IMG/VR virus record: IMGVR_UViG_3300028591_000079
Location: 167,065-231,064 of that record
Direction: 5' to 3' (one strand)
From: a virus
Taxonomy: Duplodnaviria > Caudoviricetes
Length of the DNA: 64,000 bases
Shown here piece by piece: positions 51,562 to 64,000 of this stretch (position 1 is its first letter; each line of letters begins with the position of its first letter). The notes beneath the pieces are model-generated. The model ran no database searches, was not told the DNA's origin, and saw only the letters and a program-made list of their open reading frames with translations. A program made the position numbers and the translations under genes.

Positions 51562-52089
51562 ATGATTCAATATAAAAATTCAATGAAATATAACATTTTA
51601 GATGAAAGATTTTATATCCAAGTACGAGATCTAACTAAGACAATAGCTGATTCATACGCAGAACATTTCAACTGGTTAGATAATAAATTCTTTAAAACAT
51701 TACGTGAAAAGAATAATAATACTAGAGGCTATTCATTCGCTGTAGATTATGATAATTTTATTGATTTTCCATATGGTAGTTTGTTTGATACAGTGGGTAC
51801 ATATAAATTAGCAGGTTGTGCATTACTAAAAAATGAACCAGAAGAAAAGAAATTGTGTTGTTTATTTGTAGATCCTAACTATAGAGGACAAAAGATAGCA
51901 AGTAAGTTAATAGAAAATAGCTTTGAATTACTCAATACAACTAAACCACTAATGACCGTATCTCAACAAAATCTATACATGTTACAAAAATTGATAAACA
52001 GATACGGATTTGAATTAACATCTGTAAAAGAATCTGTTTATAAGCCTGGCATAAAAGAATACTACTACAACGAAGGCTTGGCAAGATAA
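51562..52089 (+). CDS. GNAT-family acetyltransferase
   Basis: EKKLCCLFVDPNYRGQKIASKLIE (acetyl-CoA motif), KP.MTV, YGF. Confidence 0.8.
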   Translation: MIQYKNSMKYNILDERFYIQVRDLTKTIADSYAEHFNWLDNKFFKTLREKNNNTRGYSFAVDYDNFIDFPYGSLFDTVGTYKLAGCALLKNEPEEKKLCCLFVDPNYRGQKIASKLIENSFELLNTTKPLMTVSQQNLYMLQKLINRYGFELTSVKESVYKPGIKEYYYNEGLAR

Positions 52090-52300: not shown

Positions 52301-52389
52301 AGTAAAAATAAAGCTCTAGATACTGTTTCTAGAGCTTTTTTCTTGTTCTAATATACATCTAATCTTGCTTTTTATGGAGATTATTGATT

Positions 52390-53082
52390 ATGAACAAAAA
52401 AGAACGTGAACTGCTGAGAGATATAAAACGTAGATGGGCTGTAAAATGTAAAGAAGGTGAATTATTTTGCTTTTTATGTGGTGAGCAAATCAAAAATATG
52501 GCAGATTGTAACGCAGACCATTGGATCCCTTTATCTTTAGGTGGAAAAACAACAGAAGATAATATAAAACCAGCCCACCAACCATGTAATTCTGCTAAAG
52601 GATGTATGAGTCCAGAAGAATTTTTAGCCCACAAAGACGAAATTCTATCAAAAGTATATAAAAAAGATAAAAAACAGAGAAAATATAAAAAATCCGATAC
52701 AAAAAAGGTAAAATTAGATAAAAGAAAAACTCAAAGACTACAAAAACGTAAAAATGATGTCTTATATACTGCTTCTTACAGTTTAAAACAACCTTATGAC
52801 ATCGGAACTACAATATATTACATAAAAGAAGATCTAACGCAGAAAAAACCTAAATTTGAAATAAAAGAAGGTGTTATAATTGGGTTTACATACAAAAATA
52901 CAGTAGAATATGTGTTAGTTAAGGATTTTTTCATCAACGAACAAGGTAAAATAGACTCTGAACTTCTTGATGTAATACCACTAACTAAACCTCAAGCTAT
53001 TGCAACAAAATTAGAATATGAAAAATTGACAAAACATCTATTCTTACAACTTATCCAACAACAAAAATTATTGGAACATTAA
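52390..53082 (+). CDS. HNH endonuclease
   Basis: CFLCG...DHWIPLSLGG....NIKPAHQPCNSAKG. Confidence 0.85.
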   Translation: MNKKERELLRDIKRRWAVKCKEGELFCFLCGEQIKNMADCNADHWIPLSLGGKTTEDNIKPAHQPCNSAKGCMSPEEFLAHKDEILSKVYKKDKKQRKYKKSDTKKVKLDKRKTQRLQKRKNDVLYTASYSLKQPYDIGTTIYYIKEDLTQKKPKFEIKEGVIIGFTYKNTVEYVLVKDFFINEQGKIDSELLDVIPLTKPQAIATKLEYEKLTKHLFLQLIQQQKLLEH

Positions 53083-53118
53083 ACTTGCATAAAACATTAA
53101 ATTTCGTATAATATGTTT

Positions 53119-53320
53119 TGTAATAAGGGTCGCTTGGAATGTTAAAACCAGCTAACCTAAACGTTGAGACCCTTGCCAAGTTTTGTTTCTCATAAAGTCT
53201 GGATAACTGCCGAGAACAAAAACTCAAAAACTGCTGAGAGTATAACTAATGCAGTATCTTTTCTTTCATTTCATAGCCTTATAGCTCACCAAAAATTATA
53301 TTTAGGTGAGTTATTTTTTT
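53119..53320 (+). ncRNA. Candidate ~200-nt structured RNA between a promoter and a terminator
   Basis: Promoter 53085-53112, three hairpins, terminator 53283-53320. Confidence 0.4.
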
Positions 53321-53343
53321 ATTAGTGGGTTCTTATCCTCGAA
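53296..53343 (+). repeat. 48-bp inverted repeat, copy 1, containing the crossover-like site GTTCTTATCCTCGAA (53329-53343)
   Basis: Exact reverse complement of 63953-64000. Confidence 0.95.
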
Positions 53344-55126
53344 TCAGGGTAGTGAAAATACCGGGAAAATCTTGGGTATCAATTCTGAAGGTGAAGTTGT
53401 ACCTGTAAGTGCTTCAGGCATTGTAACACCAGAAGGTGAAGCTTCAATTTTAGATAATTCACAGCCTAAAAATCTGTTTGGTGAAACTGCTGAACAAATA
53501 GTTGTACCAACTGAAAATATGCTAAATGATGAATCTGAACATTGTGGTTATAGTGCTTCTCAAGCTGTTGTAGGTCCATTCCTTTCAAATTTCAACCAGA
53601 CACCGATTAGAAACAAACAGTTAGCTTCGGTTTCTTGCTGTATAAAAACTTTAAGTACAGTAGATAATACTTATCCGTTTTTTATAATCGATTTAGGTAC
53701 AGACACTTTTCCTTCAACGAAAGAAGCTTTGTCAAGTATAGTACCTGCTTCAAACTGGAAAACCACATATAAAAAATTCTTTGAAGTAACATTAACGAGT
53801 TCTGATTTAGGCCATATGGAAAACTTCAAATTAGATGGTTCAGATTCTAGAGTTACTTATAGAAATCCTGATTATTTAGATAGCGAAGGTTATTTGGTTA
53901 TTCCTACTGGTAATTGGGTAATGCTTGGTGATGACAGATCAGATTACGGTGCATTTGGTTATGATAGAGACTCACAATCTCAAACAGGCTATAGTAAACC
54001 ATTTTATTATAAAAGCAGCTCCGGTAGTTATGGTTCATCCAAGGGGAACTTTGGTGTATCATTTTTTGAAAGAACTTGGGAAACCGAAACAATTACAAAA
54101 CAGAATTTTGATGCATATTTAGTAACAGAAGAATCTGGTGAACAAGTTATTCATTCTGATATTATCGCTACAGCTTTATCTGATATTGAAGATTTGAAAG
54201 AACGTAATCCAAACTCACCACTACAAGGAAAATGGTTATCAATAATTGGTGATAGTATTTCTACTTTTGAAGGTTGGTCTAATATTGCCCCTGGTTCTAC
54301 TTCAGCTGCGGTTTATTATCCAAACTCTGGTGTAGCTTCACCAATTTTAGATGTAAATCAGACGTATTGGAAAAAGTTGATTGACAGAACTGGAATGAAT
54401 CTATTGGTAAACAACTCATGGTCAGGTTCACATTGTGCTGGTTCTAGTACAGGTTCAGTAGTATCTCAGTCAAATGATCGTTGCCATCAGTTACATAAAA
54501 CTATTGATGGAACAGTTGTAAATCCAGATTATATTTTGATCAATATCGGAACTAACGACTTTGACCATGATTATGAAATGGGTACATGGAACGGTAGAGG
54601 TGTTTTATTCCCTGCTAATCCAACTACAACATCACCAAATACTTTCAGAGAAGCTTATGCCGTCATGTTGTATCGGTTAAGACAGTATTATCCACTAGCT
54701 AAAGTTTTCTGCTGTACTATACCTTGCGGAAACAACGAAGGCGGTGAGGGTCTAAATGAAATAAATGGTACTGGTTATACCTTATCCGAGTGGAATGATG
54801 CTATTAGAGAAGTAGCTACTGCATTTGGCGTAAAAGTAATTGAAATGGCAACTGCAGGTATGGATTATTATACTTTAGCAACTCTATACGGTGACGGTAG
54901 AGTTCATCCTTCAGAAGCAGGCATGGAACGTATGTATGAAATCATCAGACCTGCCATGGAAAATGAAACAACTTCTAATACATCAGCACCAAGACTGTCT
55001 AAGTTGATGACTGGTACTGCAACTGCTATATCAGACTCTACGGCTTCTGATGTTTCTGGTTTAGTAACTGATTTCAATGCTTTACTTGCAGCCTTGAGAG
55101 CAAGAGGCGTTATCTCAGCTTCATAA
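53306..55126 (+). CDS. Fibre/receptor-binding cassette A with an SGNH esterase domain (probably lacks its own start)
   Basis: GDSIST, NNSWSGS, IGTND, DGRVHP; C-terminal fibre-type motif DVSGLVTDFNALLAALRARG; the GTG start lies inside a terminator stem. Confidence 0.75.
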   Translation: MSYFFISGFLSSNQGSENTGKILGINSEGEVVPVSASGIVTPEGEASILDNSQPKNLFGETAEQIVVPTENMLNDESEHCGYSASQAVVGPFLSNFNQTPIRNKQLASVSCCIKTLSTVDNTYPFFIIDLGTDTFPSTKEALSSIVPASNWKTTYKKFFEVTLTSSDLGHMENFKLDGSDSRVTYRNPDYLDSEGYLVIPTGNWVMLGDDRSDYGAFGYDRDSQSQTGYSKPFYYKSSSGSYGSSKGNFGVSFFERTWETETITKQNFDAYLVTEESGEQVIHSDIIATALSDIEDLKERNPNSPLQGKWLSIIGDSISTFEGWSNIAPGSTSAAVYYPNSGVASPILDVNQTYWKKLIDRTGMNLLVNNSWSGSHCAGSSTGSVVSQSNDRCHQLHKTIDGTVVNPDYILINIGTNDFDHDYEMGTWNGRGVLFPANPTTTSPNTFREAYAVMLYRLRQYYPLAKVFCCTIPCGNNEGGEGLNEINGTGYTLSEWNDAIREVATAFGVKVIEMATAGMDYYTLATLYGDGRVHPSEAGMERMYEIIRPAMENETTSNTSAPRLSKLMTGTATAISDSTASDVSGLVTDFNALLAALRARGVISAS

Positions 55127-55146
55127 AAACTTAACAAATAAAAATT

Positions 55147-55176
55147 ACCTCCCAGTTTTATTTCTGGGAGGTTTTT
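55147..55176. terminator. Bidirectional terminator between cassettes A and B
   Basis: ACCTCCCAG...CTGGGAGGT followed by TTTT. Confidence 0.75.
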
Positions 55177-55206
55177 GTATCTATAAATATTTTATGATAC
55201 TTTTTA

Positions 55207-58149
55207 TTATGCTATAGTCAAAGCTTTAGATAATAGCAATAATTGATCTTTTGTTATATCGTAAACAAATTCACCGGCAGTTTTACCTACTCTATATATT
55301 ATTGCTACATATTTTGTTGTAGATTGTAAAGTTATATTTGCTGTTCTCCATCCTTGCATTGTTTCGCCAGGTGTTCCAACAGGTGTCCCATTTTCATTAT
55401 ATTCATACACTCCATAAGCTAAATCGCTATATGTTGAAACTAAAGAACTATCAGGATTCCATTGTAAAGTTTCGCCACCATTTACTGCTAATAGATACCC
55501 GGTAACCTCTTTTGTTGTAGCACTAGTATCTGACACAACGCAATCAATTGCTGGTGCACATCGGCCTCCGCTTGGTTTATAACCCCAATAACTACTTTGA
55601 ACACCAAAGCCATGAGCAGTATTTGCTACCAGTGGCATTTTATCAATGGAATCTACAACACGATAATTGAAATACTTTGTTTTACCACCATAAGTACAAG
55701 AACAAAGCTTGTAGTGTTCACTTGAGGATGTTATAACACCTCGTTGAGATAAGATATTCAATAAGGTATTTAATTCTTCTCTCAATTCATCAACGGTTGC
55801 TCCAGTAAAATCAGATATAATTGGGGTAAAACTTTTCAATGTTTTATCTGACATATATCCAGTAACTGTACCAACATTTGAGTCATCAGATTCCATTGTG
55901 TGCCTAATGGTTTGATAATATAATTCCATACCAGCTTCATTTGGATGTAAACTACCATCACTGTAAAAGTTTTGTAATGTATAATAATTCATTCCGCATA
56001 AAGCAAGTTCAACTACTTTACAACCAAAGGCAGCAGCAATTTCTCTAATAGCATCGTTGAATTCTACCAATGAAACACCTACTCTGTTTATTTCATCAAA
56101 TCCTGGAGATAAATTGTTTGTTACTTCTCCGCAAGGAACAGTACAACAGAATATTTTAGCCAAAGGATAATTTCTTTTCAAACGGCCCAACATAACAGCA
56201 TAAGCTTCACGGAATGTATCTGGAGATGAGTTAAGATCTGGAACTTTTTGACCATTTCTACCATCCCATTTTCCAAATCCCTGTGGACCATAATATGTTG
56301 CAGTTCCAGAACCAGAATCTGATATTCTACTAATAGTTTTACTCATGTGATCGAAATCATTAGTGCCAATATTGATCAATATGTAATCAGGATTTACAAC
56401 TATTCCATCGATTGTTTTATGGAGTTGATTACATCTATCATTCTCGGTATCAACAACATAACCTTTCCAAAACTTAGAAACAGTTGAACCAGACCATGAA
56501 TTATTCACTAATAGTTTCATTCCGGTTCTATCAACTAATTTCTTCCAGTAAGTTTGATCTACTGTTGTCATACTATTCTTTACAGTTGATTTTGGATAAT
56601 ATATTGCAGAATTTACAGAAGCTGGTGCAACATTAGACCATCCATCCCAAGTAGAAATACTATCACCAATAATTGATAGATATTTGCCTTTTAATGGAGA
56701 TTCTTTTTCATTGATAGACTGTAATGCATCACTATTATATTCTTTATCTCTAACTATTTCTGAAGTATATAAATCTAAACAAAGTTCATAAGAATTCTGT
56801 ATGCTTCCAGCAATTCCAGTATCAGCATTTATTACTTGAAATTTTTGATATTGATTTGGTGTTGCATTATAATCACTGCAGAATATAAATGTAGTCACAC
56901 AATCATCTAATATTCTAGTAGATGTTACAGTTTGTCTTGCCCTACCATCTATACCTATAACCAAAGTACCATCCATATAAAACCCGCCATGTTCAACATC
57001 ATATATATCTGTAGCATTGATAGTAACATTTGGGTCTGAACCGTCTAAAGCAAAAATCATTGGTTTAGTAGCACCCATACCAACATATGGAACGTTTATT
57101 GTGCATAATGTATTTTCATCACTGTTAAGTTCTGGATATGCTGACCCTTCAGTTAATTTACCATTTATACCATTTGTTGTATATTTAATTTTTACAGCAT
57201 GTTGGCCAGACCCAGGTCTTATACCAATATGCGTTAAATATTTTCCAGTCATTGGTGATTGATCAGCTAAAACATAAACTCTAGTATTCACAGAACCACT
57301 TGTAGGCATAATGGAAGAATTTATTACACCAACAGGGATTCTTTTATTTGTGATCTTTTCTAACTTTTCATCTACCGCATATTGATGTTTTTTATCATCA
57401 ACCAATGTAGAAACCGCTGTGAATTCAATTGGCATACACACAGAAGTGGATGTTGCATCTGTATAATCAGTACCTGCAATTGCTCCTGTTGACCCATTGT
57501 AATACAAGAATGATTCTAATTCTAAATTAGTCAAAGTAACATTAGCTGGACGATTTTTTGTACCAAAACCAAATTGTCTGCATGTTGGTTCTGTTTTTGT
57601 ATCACCTGGTATACGCTGTCCTAATCCCAAGAAATAGTTCCAAGGTATAACAGGATAGGATTTTGTAACACCATTAAAAGTAATTGTTTTTAGAAATTCT
57701 TGGTTTATCGTAACTCTAGGATCTGAACCATCTAGTTTGAAAGTATTAATACCTCGTGGTAAATCTTTGGTATTCAAAGTAATAAATTCGTGTAGGTTTG
57801 ACTCCATTGCTGCTCTTGTTGAAGGCATCATTGATTTCAACAAAAAGTTACCATTATCAGATATTGGTGCATTTTCAATATACAACAAATATAATTTCAA
57901 GTTATAACTAGTGATAGTTGGATAATCTTGATTTGCTAAAAATAATGAAACAGTATCTAATAAGCATTCTTTTAATCCGGCGTATCTTTCAATAAAGAAT
58001 GGTGCTACGCCAAAATTACAATTATTTGGCGAACTTCCAACATCGACTTTGCTTGTATCAAAGTTCAAAGATCTGTGTAATATCATTCCTTCTGTTATTT
58101 TAAAGTCAGGAGATGATGTTATATTCGAGGATAAGAACTTGATATGCAT
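55207..58149 (-). CDS. Fibre/receptor-binding cassette B with an SGNH esterase domain
   Basis: SPLKGKYLSIIGDSIST, NNSWSGS, IGTND, DGSLHP; two LDGSDP.VT modules; begins MHIK-FLSSN. Confidence 0.75.
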   Translation of the reverse strand: MHIKFLSSNITSSPDFKITEGMILHRSLNFDTSKVDVGSSPNNCNFGVAPFFIERYAGLKECLLDTVSLFLANQDYPTITSYNLKLYLLYIENAPISDNGNFLLKSMMPSTRAAMESNLHEFITLNTKDLPRGINTFKLDGSDPRVTINQEFLKTITFNGVTKSYPVIPWNYFLGLGQRIPGDTKTEPTCRQFGFGTKNRPANVTLTNLELESFLYYNGSTGAIAGTDYTDATSTSVCMPIEFTAVSTLVDDKKHQYAVDEKLEKITNKRIPVGVINSSIMPTSGSVNTRVYVLADQSPMTGKYLTHIGIRPGSGQHAVKIKYTTNGINGKLTEGSAYPELNSDENTLCTINVPYVGMGATKPMIFALDGSDPNVTINATDIYDVEHGGFYMDGTLVIGIDGRARQTVTSTRILDDCVTTFIFCSDYNATPNQYQKFQVINADTGIAGSIQNSYELCLDLYTSEIVRDKEYNSDALQSINEKESPLKGKYLSIIGDSISTWDGWSNVAPASVNSAIYYPKSTVKNSMTTVDQTYWKKLVDRTGMKLLVNNSWSGSTVSKFWKGYVVDTENDRCNQLHKTIDGIVVNPDYILINIGTNDFDHMSKTISRISDSGSGTATYYGPQGFGKWDGRNGQKVPDLNSSPDTFREAYAVMLGRLKRNYPLAKIFCCTVPCGEVTNNLSPGFDEINRVGVSLVEFNDAIREIAAAFGCKVVELALCGMNYYTLQNFYSDGSLHPNEAGMELYYQTIRHTMESDDSNVGTVTGYMSDKTLKSFTPIISDFTGATVDELREELNTLLNILSQRGVITSSSEHYKLCSCTYGGKTKYFNYRVVDSIDKMPLVANTAHGFGVQSSYWGYKPSGGRCAPAIDCVVSDTSATTKEVTGYLLAVNGGETLQWNPDSSLVSTYSDLAYGVYEYNENGTPVGTPGETMQGWRTANITLQSTTKYVAIIYRVGKTAGEFVYDITKDQLLLLSKALTIA
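58123..58138 (-). repeat. Crossover-like site, copy 2 (GTTCTTATCCTCGAAT)
   Basis: 16-bp identity to 53329-53344, inverted, read in the same frame (FLSSN). Confidence 0.9.
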
Positions 58150-58400
58150 TTTTGTGTTTATATAACTAATTAATATTCAGCAAATTGAAAAAACATTAAA
58201 AAGCATAAAAATCGTGTCAATACATTTGTATATACAGCATAAAAGACTGAAAAACCGCCATAAAATTTTTCAATTTTCCCATCTAGACTGTTTCAAAAAA
58301 CTTTTATAAATTGGTTCTATTATACATTCAAAACATTAAACTAGATTTCTATATTAAACAATCTATAATTACAACGAAAAACATAAAAAGGAGAACATCT

Positions 58401-58673
58401 ATGGCTGATAATACACTTAAAAAATGCATTGAAATAAAAACTCCAAATTGTCCTCGTTGTAAACTTTTTGAACCAACCTATCAAGAATTACAAAAAAAAT
58501 ATCCTCAATTTGATTATTCTGTCTTTGTTTTTGGTGTAGATAAAGAAGCACAAGAGTTAGCTACTAAATATTCCATTCGTTCTGCTCCAACTTTTGTAAT
58601 ATTCAATGGTGAAAATGTAGATATAACAAAACAAGAAGAATTAGAATCAGTATTGGAAAAGAATTGTGATTAA
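58401..58673 (+). CDS. Thioredoxin
   Basis: CPRC active site, YSIRSAPTFVIF; AAGGAG SD. Confidence 0.85.
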   Translation: MADNTLKKCIEIKTPNCPRCKLFEPTYQELQKKYPQFDYSVFVFGVDKEAQELATKYSIRSAPTFVIFNGENVDITKQEELESVLEKNCD

Positions 58674-59169
58674 TTTTGATACAACTTTTTTAGATTATCC
58701 AAGCCCAGATGGTATTGCAGTCGTTGTAATTATGTCTGGTTGTTCTCATGGTTGTATTGGGTGTCAAAATCCATTATTGCAAAAAATACATGAAAAAATA
58801 AACGATAAACTTATAGAAGATATAATAGAAGAAATAAAAATACGTTGCAAAAGAAATGATACAAACAAAATAGTCTTATCTGGAGGAGATTGTCTTCATG
58901 AATGTAATCGTAATTTGACTGCCTCTATTTGTTCTATACTTGGCCCTACGCACGATATTTGCATTTATACTGGGTACTCACATGAAGAAGTAAAAAACAT
59001 GCAAATAAGAGGTTATAAATATGTAAAATGTGGCAAGTTTGATAAAGATAATATGCAAATCTCGGAAAAAACAGATGATTATATTCAATTTGTAAATAAA
59101 ACCCAAAATCTATTCGATGAAGCCGGCAATCAGTTATCAGTTGACGGTAGATTCTATTTTAATAACTAA
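58666..59169 (+). CDS. nrdG: Anaerobic ribonucleotide reductase activase (radical SAM)
   Basis: SGCSHGCIGCQN, LSGGD, IYTGY, KCGKF, NQ-like TQN. Confidence 0.9.
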   Translation: MINFDTTFLDYPSPDGIAVVVIMSGCSHGCIGCQNPLLQKIHEKINDKLIEDIIEEIKIRCKRNDTNKIVLSGGDCLHECNRNLTASICSILGPTHDICIYTGYSHEEVKNMQIRGYKYVKCGKFDKDNMQISEKTDDYIQFVNKTQNLFDEAGNQLSVDGRFYFNN

Positions 59170-59182
59170 TAGGAGCAATAAA

Positions 59183-60937
59183 ATGACCGAAGAAAAGAAA
59201 GCGATAAAAATTAAGTTTCCAGAATTCGATAATAACACAGAAAATCCATATCAAGAAGAGATGGAAAAACTGATTGATACTAATCTTTCTGAAGCTACAA
59301 CAACTCGAACATTGAAAAATATTACTGAAACTCTAACAAAGGCATTGAAATCTAAATATGGAATCACAGACAAGGAAGAATTGAAAACCAAAGTAAATGC
59401 AATTCTAAAGGCTCATGGGTTGGCTCCTGAAAATTTTGATCCATTGGCTTTTATTTCTAAACAAGTCTTCGGTAACCTACAATCTGTTAATGATGTTTCT
59501 ATTGATGATAATGCAAATAAAACTGATACGAATATGACGGGTGTTTGTGTTGAATCTTTCTTGCCGTATCAAAAATTAGCAGGTTACGACTATTTATATC
59601 AAACCATCAAAGATTTATATGGTAAAGAAGAAGCTAAAAAGTGCACCGCTGATATGTATGACTTCTCTTTGGCATTGAATGATTCTACTAAAATTCTAAT
59701 TCCTTATTGTTATTGTGTGGATGCTTCTAAAATTGTAACCGAAGGAAGAAATTTTGGTCAGGTTCATTCTTCTCCAGCTCATCGCATTTCTACTTATATT
59801 TCTGTTTTAGGTGATACCATCCGCGAAATGTCATTCAATGTTGCTGGTGCTTTAGCTATTGGTACTTTCTTTATGGATATTTGCCACTTAGCTGTTTATC
59901 GTGAAAGAATTCCATTAGATGACTTAAGAAATGATAAAAAAGCTAGAAAATCAATGGCTAATCACTTCCAACAATTCATTCATACAGTTAATCATTATTC
60001 CAGAAACGCAGTAGAATCACCTTTCACAAATGTTTCTCTGTTTGATCGTAATAAATTGGAAGGCTTGATTGCTGATGATAACTATGGCTGGTACTTCCCT
60101 AAAAAAGCAGCAGCATGTGAAGATAATGGAATTGAAGATAATAAAGATGCCTGGAAAAACTTTATTTTAGACTATATTGAAGAATTACAAGAGATATATA
60201 TTGACGTATTTGATGAGGGTGATCCTTTGCGTGGTGGTTTACAATTTCCATTCCCTGTAACAACCTGTAATTTCGGAACAACTAAAGACGAAAAAGGTAA
60301 CAATAAACTAACATATGAAGATAATAAACTGTTAGACTATATTACAAAGCATGCAGATATTTCTCGTTACAATATTTATGCCTCTGAAGGGTCTAAAGTT
60401 GCTTCTTGTTGTCGTTTATTGTCCGACTCTGACTTCTTGGCATATGCAGGTGGAGTAAATTCATTTGGTGGTTCACAAGTTTCTTTAGGTTCTCATCGTG
60501 TAGTTACTATCAATTTTGCAAGATGTGCCTATGAAGCTGAATCTTATGATGACTTCAAGAAAATTGTTGTAGAACGTGTTGCTAGAATGGGTAAAATCTT
60601 AAAAGCACATAAAGTTTTGATCTTGAAGTTAGAAGAATTAGGAAAACAACCTTGGATATCAAATGGCTGGATTGATATGACACACATGTTCTCCACTTTT
60701 GGTTGTGTTGGATATGTAGAAGCTGACAAGATCTTGAAATTCAAATTCAACCATGTAGATTTTGATTATATGAAAGACTTTTTGGTATTCTTCAATAACG
60801 AATGTCAAAAAGTAGCTAATCAAGAAAACATTATATTCAATATTGAAGCGATTCCAGCTGAAGGGATGGCTCCAAAGTTGGCAAAAGTTGATAAAATACT
60901 ATTTGCAGATGAAGATGGAAATTATGTATTTGAATAA
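59183..60937 (+). CDS. nrdD: Anaerobic (class III) ribonucleotide reductase, N-terminal catalytic part
   Basis: SIDDNAN, PYC, ESPFTNVSLFD, FPFPVTT, ASCCRL, GSHRVVTIN, EAIPAE. Confidence 0.9.
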   Translation: MTEEKKAIKIKFPEFDNNTENPYQEEMEKLIDTNLSEATTTRTLKNITETLTKALKSKYGITDKEELKTKVNAILKAHGLAPENFDPLAFISKQVFGNLQSVNDVSIDDNANKTDTNMTGVCVESFLPYQKLAGYDYLYQTIKDLYGKEEAKKCTADMYDFSLALNDSTKILIPYCYCVDASKIVTEGRNFGQVHSSPAHRISTYISVLGDTIREMSFNVAGALAIGTFFMDICHLAVYRERIPLDDLRNDKKARKSMANHFQQFIHTVNHYSRNAVESPFTNVSLFDRNKLEGLIADDNYGWYFPKKAAACEDNGIEDNKDAWKNFILDYIEELQEIYIDVFDEGDPLRGGLQFPFPVTTCNFGTTKDEKGNNKLTYEDNKLLDYITKHADISRYNIYASEGSKVASCCRLLSDSDFLAYAGGVNSFGGSQVSLGSHRVVTINFARCAYEAESYDDFKKIVVERVARMGKILKAHKVLILKLEELGKQPWISNGWIDMTHMFSTFGCVGYVEADKILKFKFNHVDFDYMKDFLVFFNNECQKVANQENIIFNIEAIPAEGMAPKLAKVDKILFADEDGNYVFE

Positions 60938-60949
60938 AGAGGTAAAGAT

Positions 60950-61384
60950 ATGAGAAAATTTAAAATGCCAAATATTTATGCAAACCAATGGTGTTCACTT
61001 TGGGAAGATTATACAATTGCTGAAAAAATGAAACGTGATGGAGAAATCAATGCCCTTATGACTGGTGGTTCAATCGTACATTATTCGGTAGATAGTAAAC
61101 TAACATCTCAACAAGCAAAAACTATGATTACAAAAGCTATTAGCAATGGTGCTGAACATTTTGCATTGAATTGTGTTTATAGCGAGTGCAGGGAATGCGG
61201 AAAGGTAGAAAAAGGTGATTTTGAAACATGTCCGCACTGCGGCAGCAAAAAGCTGATCCACTTAAGTCGTGTAATTGGTTATTTTTCTATTATAGAAAAT
61301 TGGTCTCCTGATCGTCGCAAATACGATTTTCCGAATCGAAAGTTTATAAAATCAGAACAGTTGAAAGAACAATTGGAGAAATAA
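60950..61384 (+). CDS. nrdD: Class III RNR C-terminal part (Zn ribbon and glycyl-radical domain)
   Basis: YANQW, GGSIVH, CRECG..CPHCG, SRVIGYF; own GAGGT SD. Confidence 0.9.
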   Translation: MRKFKMPNIYANQWCSLWEDYTIAEKMKRDGEINALMTGGSIVHYSVDSKLTSQQAKTMITKAISNGAEHFALNCVYSECRECGKVEKGDFETCPHCGSKKLIHLSRVIGYFSIIENWSPDRRKYDFPNRKFIKSEQLKEQLEK

Positions 61385-61390
61385 AACAAA

Positions 61391-61421
61391 AGCCTCCCGT
61401 CAGTAAAAATTGGGAGGTTTT
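61391..61421. terminator. Bidirectional terminator
   Basis: AGCCTCCC...GGGAGGTT followed by TTT. Confidence 0.7.
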
Positions 61422-61449
61422 TGCTTATTATGTTCATTTAAATTAGCTT

Positions 61450-63990
61450 TTATTGGTCAACTACAATTGGCACAAATTCACCAGTCAACTTGTCATAGCA
61501 TCCTTGAGTTGAATCAGATATTCTAGTTGCTGGAACATAGTCTCTAACCAAGTTATCTGATGTATCGTATAATTTAACTTCAATCAATTCATATGCTGTG
61601 TTATAATTTTGATTTGTGCTTGAATAACTTCCATATAAAGCATAAGGCCATCCAACGGTTGATGTTCTAGTCGCTGTTCCTAGCGGTGTTGTCAAATTAT
61701 CATCATTACCAGCATAAATCGTTAGTATTGATGCTGATTGATTTATGTCCGTAAGTGTTGATATGTATTTTGTATTTGTTTGTGGTATTACGCCAGTTAC
61801 AGCTGATGAGCTAGTACCAAATTCAAAACGGTCGGTTTTATCATATACTGATGTAAAGATTTTACCATAAATTCCACCAATTGCAGCACCGGAACCAGCA
61901 ACTATGGTATCTGTGGTTCTAAATTTTGTAACCGACTTACTTAAGTTATTTTTAGTATAAGAAGTTGGTGCTGCTCCATTTAGAATACCGGTTTTGGCAT
62001 TGTGTATTTGATAAGATCCACCAATAGTTTGGGTTGTTGTTGCTGTAATTACAATGTCACCAGTTACAGATGGAATATTTATAAACCCATCTGCATATAC
62101 ATCTGTAGTTACATCAGTTCCGCCCATGGTAACTGTTACAGAGTCTTTGATATAACCTTCATCAGATATCAATTCTGCATTATAAGCAGATTGTTCTGAA
62201 ACAGTACTATCAGTGTTTGAATTAGTTACATTTGTTAAGTTATTTGTAACACTATAACTAACTCCACTATAAGAAGCTGTAATATCTATATTTCCGTTTA
62301 CAGCATCGATGGTAATTACCCCAGTTGATGCATTATACACGGTACTGGTTATATTTGCACCATTTTGTAAAACTGTTACATTTACACCTTCAAATGGAGA
62401 TAGAGTTGTAGTAAATGTCTCGCCTAAAGCTGCCTCTGTTGCATTATTACTACTGGTTACATTTTCAAGTGTTTGAACAACACTCATTTTTAGCTTTGAA
62501 TCACGATCTTCGTGAGGCAAATGCAAAAAGTCTAACTTACTTTTTAAATCAATTATGGCTTGTCTAGCTAATGCTTTGTGGCCATTATTATTTGTGTGTG
62601 TTGGGATTGTTGCACTATCATTTACATAATATGGATAAATGTTTTCGAATGTCATGCCATTACGATCAAAATCTATTGTATGACAACCGAAGAAGCTTGC
62701 TGCTTTTCTAATTGCTTCATTCAATTGTGGCATTGAATACAGACCGTTATTTATTGGAAAAGTAGCACAATTTATTCTCTTTATTGATCGATGCGTTGCA
62801 ATAACAATTTTGGTAAATGGATAGGCTTCTCTTACTTTTTTTACCCACAAACTTAAGCCTTCTAGTATACCCCAACCATCATTGACAACATCGGTTGTAG
62901 GATATGTCCAATTCATACTATCAAAATAACCATTTGTTAGTAAACTGTATGGTGCATGGGTCATATCATTTAGCCCACGAATCATAATGATAATATCTGG
63001 AGCTTTTCTTTGCATTGAACCTGGAATACGAACACCAAGCTTTCTTATTTGTGCATCATGCCATACATATGAGGTTTTTCTATTTGCATTAGAATCTTCA
63101 TGAGCAGTAATTGAAGCACCAGACCAACAGACTGGAATAACTGTAGCACCCATATCTTCCAAATATTCCCACCATACTTTTGCATTATCATTGCCAGCAT
63201 ATCGCAAAGCCAAACCAATGGATTTACCAATATCTTCAGCGGTTGGTGTAAAATATACTTGTTTACCTATTTCATTAGTAGTAAATCTATGACCGCCTAT
63301 AGTAAGTTCAGTTGGTGTAGCTCCAGACAAGCCATAATAATCATAATATGTTAGATATGCAGCAAGTGGAACCCCAACATCTTGTTCTGTAATAGTAATT
63401 TCATAAGCGTCTTTATCGATTTTTGTTGAGTTACTGGAGTCAACAACGGCAATAGTCAAGCCATCTTTTACTTTTTCTTCTGAATTTAATATACTATCAA
63501 TTTCTTCTTCTAAATCAACTATACGACCAGATTCCTGAATACCGCTAGCTAAAACAGAAATATTCCCACTTGTTGTTCTGTGGTTTATAATTATTGCTTT
63601 TGTGTTTTCAGGAACATTTACTATTTCTTTTTTTTCATCACCCGCTGAAGTACAAGCTATTGCTCCAGAAATATATGTGGTACTATTAAAGGTATCAAAA
63701 CTATTATAAAAATATATACAATATGGATTGTTCGATGAGATATTTCCTGAAAAAACATCAACATTTAGAGTATTATAATTGTCATTGGGAATTATATAAT
63801 ATTTCCAACCTGCAGTACTTGCTTGTGTATGCGTACCGCCATACCAAATCCCAGTTATTGATGTTGTTGATTCCAGCGATAAAACATCTAAATCTTGGAT
63901 AGGAGTTTGTTCTAATATAATATCGAGTTTATCTTGAATTTCTTTGCCTTGGTTCGAGGATAAGAACCCACTAATAAAAAAATAACTCAC
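61450..63990 (-). CDS. Fibre/receptor-binding cassette C (SGNH-like domain, Ig-like repeats, C-terminal lectin-like domain)
   Basis: LSSNQGKEIQDKLD fibre motif, WSGASI, RGLND, PTHTN, VTNNLTNVTNSN repeats, VRDYVP...G.YD. Confidence 0.7.
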   Translation of the reverse strand: MSYFFISGFLSSNQGKEIQDKLDIILEQTPIQDLDVLSLESTTSITGIWYGGTHTQASTAGWKYYIIPNDNYNTLNVDVFSGNISSNNPYCIYFYNSFDTFNSTTYISGAIACTSAGDEKKEIVNVPENTKAIIINHRTTSGNISVLASGIQESGRIVDLEEEIDSILNSEEKVKDGLTIAVVDSSNSTKIDKDAYEITITEQDVGVPLAAYLTYYDYYGLSGATPTELTIGGHRFTTNEIGKQVYFTPTAEDIGKSIGLALRYAGNDNAKVWWEYLEDMGATVIPVCWSGASITAHEDSNANRKTSYVWHDAQIRKLGVRIPGSMQRKAPDIIIMIRGLNDMTHAPYSLLTNGYFDSMNWTYPTTDVVNDGWGILEGLSLWVKKVREAYPFTKIVIATHRSIKRINCATFPINNGLYSMPQLNEAIRKAASFFGCHTIDFDRNGMTFENIYPYYVNDSATIPTHTNNNGHKALARQAIIDLKSKLDFLHLPHEDRDSKLKMSVVQTLENVTSSNNATEAALGETFTTTLSPFEGVNVTVLQNGANITSTVYNASTGVITIDAVNGNIDITASYSGVSYSVTNNLTNVTNSNTDSTVSEQSAYNAELISDEGYIKDSVTVTMGGTDVTTDVYADGFINIPSVTGDIVITATTTQTIGGSYQIHNAKTGILNGAAPTSYTKNNLSKSVTKFRTTDTIVAGSGAAIGGIYGKIFTSVYDKTDRFEFGTSSSAVTGVIPQTNTKYISTLTDINQSASILTIYAGNDDNLTTPLGTATRTSTVGWPYALYGSYSSTNQNYNTAYELIEVKLYDTSDNLVRDYVPATRISDSTQGCYDKLTGEFVPIVVDQ

Positions 63991-64000
63991 CTAAATATAA
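63953..64000 (-). repeat. 48-bp inverted repeat, copy 3 (runs off the window end)
   Basis: Reverse complement identical to 53296-53343. Confidence 0.95.

Follow-up and report, generated by a model that had tools for sequence, protein, structure and literature searches.

The final 64,000 bases of the IMG/VR virus record IMGVR_UViG_3300028591_000079, a 231,064-bp contig, raise the question of why three long, fibre-like open reading frames (ORFs) without an ordinary start codon all begin with the same 15 nucleotides (nt). We refer to these 64,000 bases as the window and to the beginning of this contig, which lies immediately beyond the window end, as L002, with L002 positions counted from the contig start. 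The contig has a G+C content of 32%, a CheckV completeness of 96%, and no terminal repeat. With a probability of roughly 85%, we consider this region to be the left half of a shufflon, a switch working by multiple inversions, which has eight sites and would serve a fibre of the virion, probably on the tail, in this 231-kb phage. Coordinates for the sites, cassettes, and neighbouring features are collected in Table 1.

The repeated 15-mer, GTTCTTATCCTCGAA, is present three times in the window (sites 1, 2, and 3), and the number of matches stays at three when two mismatches are allowed. The expectation from shuffled sequence is 0.15 copies, and none of 100 shuffles reached three. Each copy reads FLSSN (TTC TTA TCC TCG AAx) in the frame of one of the long ORFs, which we call cassettes A, B, and C. 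Contig-wide there are seven exact 15-mers and one copy in which an A replaces the first G, while a 14-nt core, TTCTTATCCTCGAA, is identical at all eight sites. Three sites lie on the plus strand and five on the minus strand, and FLSS is in frame at every one of the eight. The sites are confined to about 25.5 kb spanning both contig ends; the exact 14-mer was not found in the remaining ~205 kb of the contig, and its chance expectation is about 0.002 copies. A preliminary description of the window had reported three in-frame copies of the 15-mer at the head of long ORFs and had proposed a shufflon of three sites. Exact searching and translation confirm the copies and their frames, and the shufflon reading is upheld by the site frame, the constant gene, and the recombinase, but there are eight sites rather than three: the search of the remaining genome that it called for adds five copies with an exact 14-nt core.

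The base that follows the invariant 14 nt varies among copies (AAT, AAC, or AAG), and a conserved peptide beyond the site, QG[AS]EN, is spelled with synonymous differences from copy to copy. Because the 14 nt are invariant while neighbouring conserved codons vary synonymously, the constraint at the site acts on DNA and not only on protein. Past the site, the ORFs separate as quickly as had been described. Cassette B departs from A and C at the first codon, and A and C share NQG before they too diverge.

Only one of the eight copies, site 892, has a long upstream frame (263 amino acids (aa) open) together with a GGAG ribosome-binding site. This site lies within a fibre gene whose N-terminal 250 aa form a constant part built of fibre-type repeats, ending ...TKTEADSE (GITDAYTKTEADSE)-FLSSN-LGSENAGK at the in-frame site. 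The other seven copies have 0–16 open codons upstream, and six of these seven silent copies are also without an ATG. Three silent copies (10394, A = 220393, and C = 231017) stand directly behind a terminator-like hairpin and T run or the 3' half of one. The hairpin upstream of site 1 (53281-53314) folds at -13.1 kcal/mol (RNA fold; z-score -3.0) and is followed by a T run. The nominal GTG starts of ORFs A and C both lie inside the 3' arm of the hairpin with a TAG directly before them; for ORF A, this GTG is at 53306, and the stub U_A ahead of the site has no usable start, just eight open codons (VSYFFISG) after the TAG. Sites 1 and 3 share 48 identical bp, comprising the 33-nt upstream stub and the site itself, and the identity runs to base 64000, which is the contig end. 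The 48-bp identity, the terminator with the GTG in its stem, and the silence of cassettes A and C all agree with the preliminary description. Its expectation that the constant gene and the recombinase lie outside the window was also correct, since both are at the start of the same contig, and the fibre N-terminal ORF ending in FLSSN that it suggested looking for is the gene containing site 892.

At 32% GC, the chance of open start-less frames of 598–976 codons is 10^-20 to 10^-33. Since lengths of this order are not explicable by chance, the start-less frames are coding sequences under selection. A group I intron (with the HNH gene upstream) and recoding of the TAG stop codon that directly precedes the GTG were both considered as sources of the start-less frames, and were dropped because the constant gene and the other five sites explain them.

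A tyrosine recombinase gene, encoding P0002, abuts the array with its stop codon 13 nt from site 14848. P0002 is the sole recombinase in the genome; the search for an enzyme of either type found this tyrosine recombinase, while the serine recombinase family (PF00239) has no match in the genome and does match in control genomes. P0002 scores 29.4 and 27.9 bits against PF00589, a small margin over the cut-off of 27.1. An AlphaFold model made from the family alignment has a predicted local distance difference test (pLDDT) score of 87.9 and a two-domain fold with core-binding and catalytic parts. All 13 of the Foldseek matches in the PDB at E<=1e-3 are tyrosine recombinases (Brujita Int, Tn1549 Int, and XerA among them), and lambda Int and Cre match at weaker E-values. 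In the family alignment, R198, K239, and H319 are invariant and Y357 is at least 90% conserved. The Arg II position is Lys322 in P0002 and is Lys in most close relatives, with Arg in some clade members, and the His/Trp position is Asn345 in P0002 and mostly Asn across the clade. Judged by profile, alignment, and model, P0002 is a predicted divergent tyrosine recombinase. Its family is small: among 1.84 billion representatives, 20 clusters reach E<1e-30. P0002 has no relatives in GenBank phages, a single 32% match in IMG/VR, and none in the 256-kb record behind L026. The clade is an unusual natural active-site variant of tyrosine recombinase.

Together, these components would make up a switch in which a single fibre gene is expressed, with its promoter region, GGAG, and constant 250-aa part up to the FLSS(N) site. 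The seven further sites, in both orientations, would each head a stored alternative C-terminal cassette, with A, B, and C among them. P0002, encoded beside the outermost site, would bring two inverted sites together, with strand exchange inside the 14 nt that they share. The DNA between the paired sites would then flip, so that another cassette follows the constant part in frame. Each site can be divided into two sides, stub (U) and cassette (V), and recombination between inverted sites would swap V partners. We infer that the phage recombinase acts on these sites and that inversions are the sole rearrangement.

An inversion-only simulation brings all eight V ends to the constant stub, U_892, in at most two inversions. 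One inversion suffices for B and C and for cassettes 20, 9008, and 14848, and two are needed for A and the 10394 cassette. The sites form three head-to-head pairs, 892/9008, 10394/14848, and A/B, the last of which had already been proposed as an invertible segment with C as a further option; the simulation bears out this option. The preliminary description had also suggested that the MHIK leader before site 2 could be a minimal expression site that inversion could not connect to C. Its second point stands in the simulation, as the MHIK stub can never receive C because the two form opposite ends of a single DNA segment. The first does not: the expression site is the constant gene and not the MHIK leader, and C is therefore reachable by a single inversion. 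A Shine-Dalgarno sequence is present at the constant gene and at the recombinase gene and absent at the MHIK leader, so that the stub U_B would be, at best, a weak secondary expression site. A sigma-70 promoter scan of 53000-64000 gave fewer matches than shuffles and is uninformative for the MHIK leader.

The promoter and constant part (L002 34-891) form an 860-bp piece bounded by inverted sites 20 and 892, and because these sites flank it the piece can flip as a module. A more ambitious proposal builds on this arrangement. Here, a shufflon dispersed on the scale of the genome would extend over at least 25 kb and combine the movable 860-bp module with seven or more cassettes, some being operons of several genes, and with nrdDG and thioredoxin riding on one segment; its recombinase, from a small undescribed clade, would work with Lys for the second catalytic Arg. 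We regard this extended form as possible but doubtful. If it is true, one jumbo phage alone could show a wide variety of glycan-esterase fibres.

Table 1. Positions of the crossover sites, fibre cassettes, and associated features. Window positions count from the first base of the 64,000-base window, and contig and L002 positions from the start of the 231,064-bp contig.
Feature	Position	Strand	Details
Site 20	contig 20	-	exact 14-mer
Expressed fibre gene	L002 143-1729		528 aa; GGAG ribosome-binding site; site at 892
Site 892	contig 892 (L002 892-906)	+	in-frame within expressed fibre gene
Site 9008	contig 9008	-	exact 14-mer
Site 10394	contig 10394	+	exact 14-mer
Site 14848	contig 14848	-	exact 14-mer
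Tyrosine recombinase P0002	L002 14876-16171	-	431 aa; PF00589
Hairpin and T run, terminator-like	window 53281-53321	+	directly upstream of site 1; 3' half belongs to stub U_A
Stub U_A	window 53296-53328	+	silent 'parking' stub; 33 nt, identical to 33 nt upstream of site 3
Crossover site 1	window 53329-53343 (contig 220393)	+	GTTCTTATCCTCGAA, core TTCTTATCCTCGAA
Cassette A	window 53330-55126	+	598 aa from FLSSN; silent fibre C-terminus
Bidirectional terminator hairpin	window 55147-55172	.	common to convergent cassettes A/B; -17.6 kcal/mol, z -4.9
Cassette B	window 55207-58137	-	976 aa from FLSSN
Crossover site 2	window 58124-58138 (contig 225188)	-	exact 15-mer search
Stub U_B	window 58139-58149	-	ATG of MHIK leader; no Shine-Dalgarno sequence
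Passenger genes between sites 2 and 3	window 58311-61384	+	thioredoxin, NrdG-like activase, NrdD in two ORFs (Pfam)
Cassette C	window 61450-63966	-	838 aa from FLSSN
Crossover site 3	window 63953-63967 (contig 231017)	-	exact 15-mer search
Stub U_C	window 63968-64000	-	identical to U_A; cut by contig end

We compared the locus with that of a related phage whose constant part is 44–48% identical to the constant part here. Three proteins of this relative, P0076 (318 aa), P0086 (432 aa), and P0090 (849 aa, SGNH), have N-termini that are at least 99% identical over ~200 aa. Their tails are unrelated after ...NIELLTS, at an E-[LF]-[LV]-[ST]-S motif that corresponds to EFLSS in the present phage. 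The tail of P0086 is also found unfused, as start-less fragments of 199–200 aa (P0130 and P0131) on eight contigs. The longest contig with such a fragment measures 14,252 bp, equal to the longest carrying P0090, which suggests that one contig holds P0090 expressed and the P0086 tail silent. Three tails on one N-terminus in different assemblies, one of them both fused and unfused, are indirect evidence of switching. One SGNH cassette (clustered at >=90% identity) is fused to two diverged constant N-termini, in P0090 and in P0135, and cassettes therefore also move between phage lineages.

Several observations weigh against a programmed switch. No alternative arrangement of the phage has been observed, no same-species contig was found in IMG/VR or the JGI metagenomes, and no inversion has been seen directly in this phage. 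Searches of IMG/VR with a 29-mer joining the constant end to the site, and with the site plus YCARGG, gave no match, and the constant protein retrieved only distant repeat-motif relatives from IMG/VR, the JGI metagenomes, and GTDB genomes. L010 seemed at first to be an 85% relative and was rejected, its match being limited to a generic fibre repeat. Relatives provide evidence from proteins only, and exchange of modules among strains could give the same pattern. Cassette B has an ATG four codons upstream, without a ribosome-binding site, and could be self-expressed. The active site of P0002 is atypical at Lys322 and Asn345, and its activity is not guaranteed. The crossover sites also have no dyad symmetry. 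We rejected CCTCGA-A-TCAAGG as a dyad-symmetric site: this palindrome-like string is present only in cassettes that start with Gln-Gly and is probably a by-product of the coding sequence.

Were the locus a static array of fibre-gene paralogues, FLSSN would owe its conservation as a protein linker to descent, every ORF would be self-expressed, and no programmed rearrangement would take place. The linker peptide FLSSNQG.EN.GK that several cassettes have in common fits such an array, as does the ATG of cassette B, and the missing Shine-Dalgarno sequences are not decisive because some other genes of the phage also lack one. However, descent of a protein linker does not account for 14 nt identical in eight copies while adjoining conserved codons vary synonymously, and self-expression sits poorly with the six silent copies that have no ATG, the 0–16 open codons upstream of the silent copies, and the three copies that follow either a terminator-like hairpin and T run or just the 3' half of the hairpin. 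The N-terminal part, always present in relatives, is here on one copy only, and a recombinase gene abuts the array. We therefore consider a static array very improbable. A site that marks an evolutionary module boundary, where occasional homologous or illegitimate recombination swaps tips, would need no frequent programmed switching, and P0002 would then be an integrase with another job. The SGNH cassette that P0090 and P0135 carry on diverged constant regions is indeed a case of exchange between lineages, and the lack of a directly seen inversion is compatible with it. Yet homologous recombination is not efficient over as little as 14 nt, and seven intact start-less cassettes of up to 976 codons need recurrent expression to persist. 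The sole recombinase of the genome abuts a site, and the layout of constant gene, cassettes, and recombinase is that of the Rin and R64 systems (PMC6109161; bioRxiv 10.1101/2024.10.25.620183). Occasional exchange at a module boundary is, in our view, a very improbable account of the locus.

The contig ends raise a further alternative, as both fall inside the site cluster and in sequence that is repeated at other sites. The final 48 nt of the contig are the sequence at site 1, and the first 33 nt are the reverse complement of L002 10395-10427. Mis-joined or folded-back contigs might thus have produced the repeats, or at any rate the 48-bp repeat at the end. No artefact of this kind yields eight copies whose contexts are all unique, with a different long ORF following each, and we give this explanation almost no credence. 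The contig ends are better explained as breaks at a real locus that is repeated and heterogeneous. Shufflons are known to cause assembly breaks of this kind (PMC5430464). With a CheckV completeness of 96%, the gap between the contig ends may amount to as much as ~9 kb and may hold one or two further cassettes. Across these ends, a 20-aa stub after site 20 continues directly into a copy of the terminator 3' arm, and adding 10 nt from site 1 (tcaccaaaaa) would complete the hairpin at the junction. Because these 10 nt would complete it, a short or long piece is probably missing there. The uncertainty is confined to the exact junction between the two contig ends.

The eight-site inversion switch that we favour has its closest known counterpart in Rin, from dnaJ2-integrated prophages of Bifidobacterium breve and Bifidobacterium longum (Mavrich et al. 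2018, PMC6109161), which its authors described as the first phage-encoded invertase of the tyrosine family (PMC6109161). Both systems are phage-encoded and join a constant receptor-binding-protein gene (Rc in Rin) to start-less variable cassettes (Rv). Both use a short, asymmetric, repeated site (the 11-bp rix in Rin and 14 nt here), and in both a tyrosine recombinase flanks the array at the opposite end from the constant gene. The differences are mainly of scale and content. Rin belongs to small temperate siphophages and has a compact locus, whereas the eight sites of the present system are spread over 25 kb or more of a 231-kb jumbo phage. The cassettes here are as long as 976 aa, include enzymatic SGNH domains, and are in some cases multi-gene; a ribonucleotide-reductase operon lies on one invertible segment; the promoter and constant part are flanked by inverted sites; and the recombinase, with Lys at the Arg II position, comes from a small clade of its own. 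For Rin, inversion was demonstrated by sequencing; here it is predicted.

The pilV shufflon of R64 and other IncI1 plasmids (recombinase Rci, sites sfx) is similar in several respects. A tyrosine recombinase lies beside the array, head-to-head segments carry two cassettes each, and assembly breaks are known or suspected (bioRxiv 10.1101/2024.10.25.620183; PMC5430464). The sites are likewise asymmetric, in frame, conserved on one side, and present in both orientations. In sfx, only the spacer and one arm are conserved, an asymmetry believed to limit the system to inversion (bioRxiv 10.1101/2024.10.25.620183). Unlike the phage locus, R64 serves the pilus adhesin of a conjugative plasmid and has seven sfx sites in ~2 kb with small cassettes. 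The Min (plasmid-prophage p15B), Gin (Mu), and Cin (P1) systems also switch tail-fibre C-termini by inversion at in-frame sites (PMC6109161). As in Mu, where a segment carries a variable 3' end and a complete downstream gene (Sv-U and Sv'-U'), cassettes 892, 9008, and 14848 are followed by further genes. Min, Gin, and Cin are serine invertases that use Fis, an enhancer, and dyad-symmetric 26-bp sites, in contrast to the asymmetric sites and the absence of PF00239 matches in the present genome. The system is a larger and more dispersed variant of the shufflon type known from smaller phages and plasmids.

Within the literature library searched, no paper paired 'shufflon' with 'jumbo phage'. Fibre shufflons with tyrosine recombinases have so far been found mainly in small temperate prophages of Bifidobacterium and Eggerthella, and the present case extends them to jumbo phages. 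If the switch is active, one uncultured jumbo phage can display at least seven different fibre tips without mutation, and its host range in the gut or rumen would be broadened or hedged. The recombinase and its exact 14-nt asymmetric site form a candidate inversion tool. Contig ends inside fibre arrays deserve a second look, as shufflon loci break metagenomic assemblies.

The cassettes differ considerably in size and content. Cassette A consists of a linker, FLSSNQGSENTGK, an SGNH esterase domain (GDS, GTND, HP), and a head-fibre-like C-terminal helix, and it matches PF13472 (8e-16, 59.5 bits) and the tail fibre family phrog_5240 (3.7e-16). Cassette B also matches PF13472 (2.4e-15, 57.9 bits) behind a long N-terminal part without assignment. 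The SGNH domains of A and B are 53% identical over 328 aa (blastp), and both contain the blocks GDSIST, GTND, and HP. Cassette C is 23–26% identical to A and B and scores 28.6 bits against PF13472, below the cut-off of 32.9; its middle part is weakly SGNH-like, with a GLND block and GAS in place of GDS. The preliminary description had called all three SGNH-esterase cassettes, which is well supported for A and B, with Pfam scores above the cut-off and GDS/GTND/HP blocks, but weak for C. In total, at least three tips (four with the weak match in C) are SGNH-type esterases, probably acting on acetylated surface polysaccharides. From the SGNH domains we infer a role on acetylated glycans, such that switching would alter the surface glycan that is bound or deacetylated and hence the host range.

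The end of cassette A (55020-55126) is a ~35-aa helix (…TDFNALLAALRARGVISAS) that resembles the C-terminus of phi29-type head-fibre proteins. This helix matches PF11133 at 22.7 bits, below the cut-off, and also matches phrog_14753. Cassette B carries the same helix motif internally, followed by ~170 more residues.

Three cassettes are multi-gene and bring separate downstream genes with them. Behind cassette 892 (278 aa) lie two ORFs, of 356 and 811 aa; cassette 9008 (97 aa) is followed by a 1117-aa paralogue of the 811-aa ORF (27% identity), and cassette 14848 (171 aa) by a Peptidase_S11-like ORF.

Upstream of the stub of cassette A lie a GNAT acetyltransferase ORF (51562-52089, plus strand) and an HNH endonuclease ORF (52384-53082, plus strand), and we found no link between these ORFs and the shufflon. 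Between sites 2 and 3, the nrdD, nrdG, and thioredoxin passengers would flip whenever this segment inverts. NrdD (59117-61384, plus strand) is encoded downstream of thioredoxin and the NrdG-like activase in two ORFs, with 606 aa covering positions 49-432 of the Pfam profile and 144 aa covering 439-554. The two ORFs are 12 nt apart, and as a separate AGAGG ribosome-binding site serves the second, the glycyl-radical (C-terminal) part of NrdD would be a polypeptide of its own.

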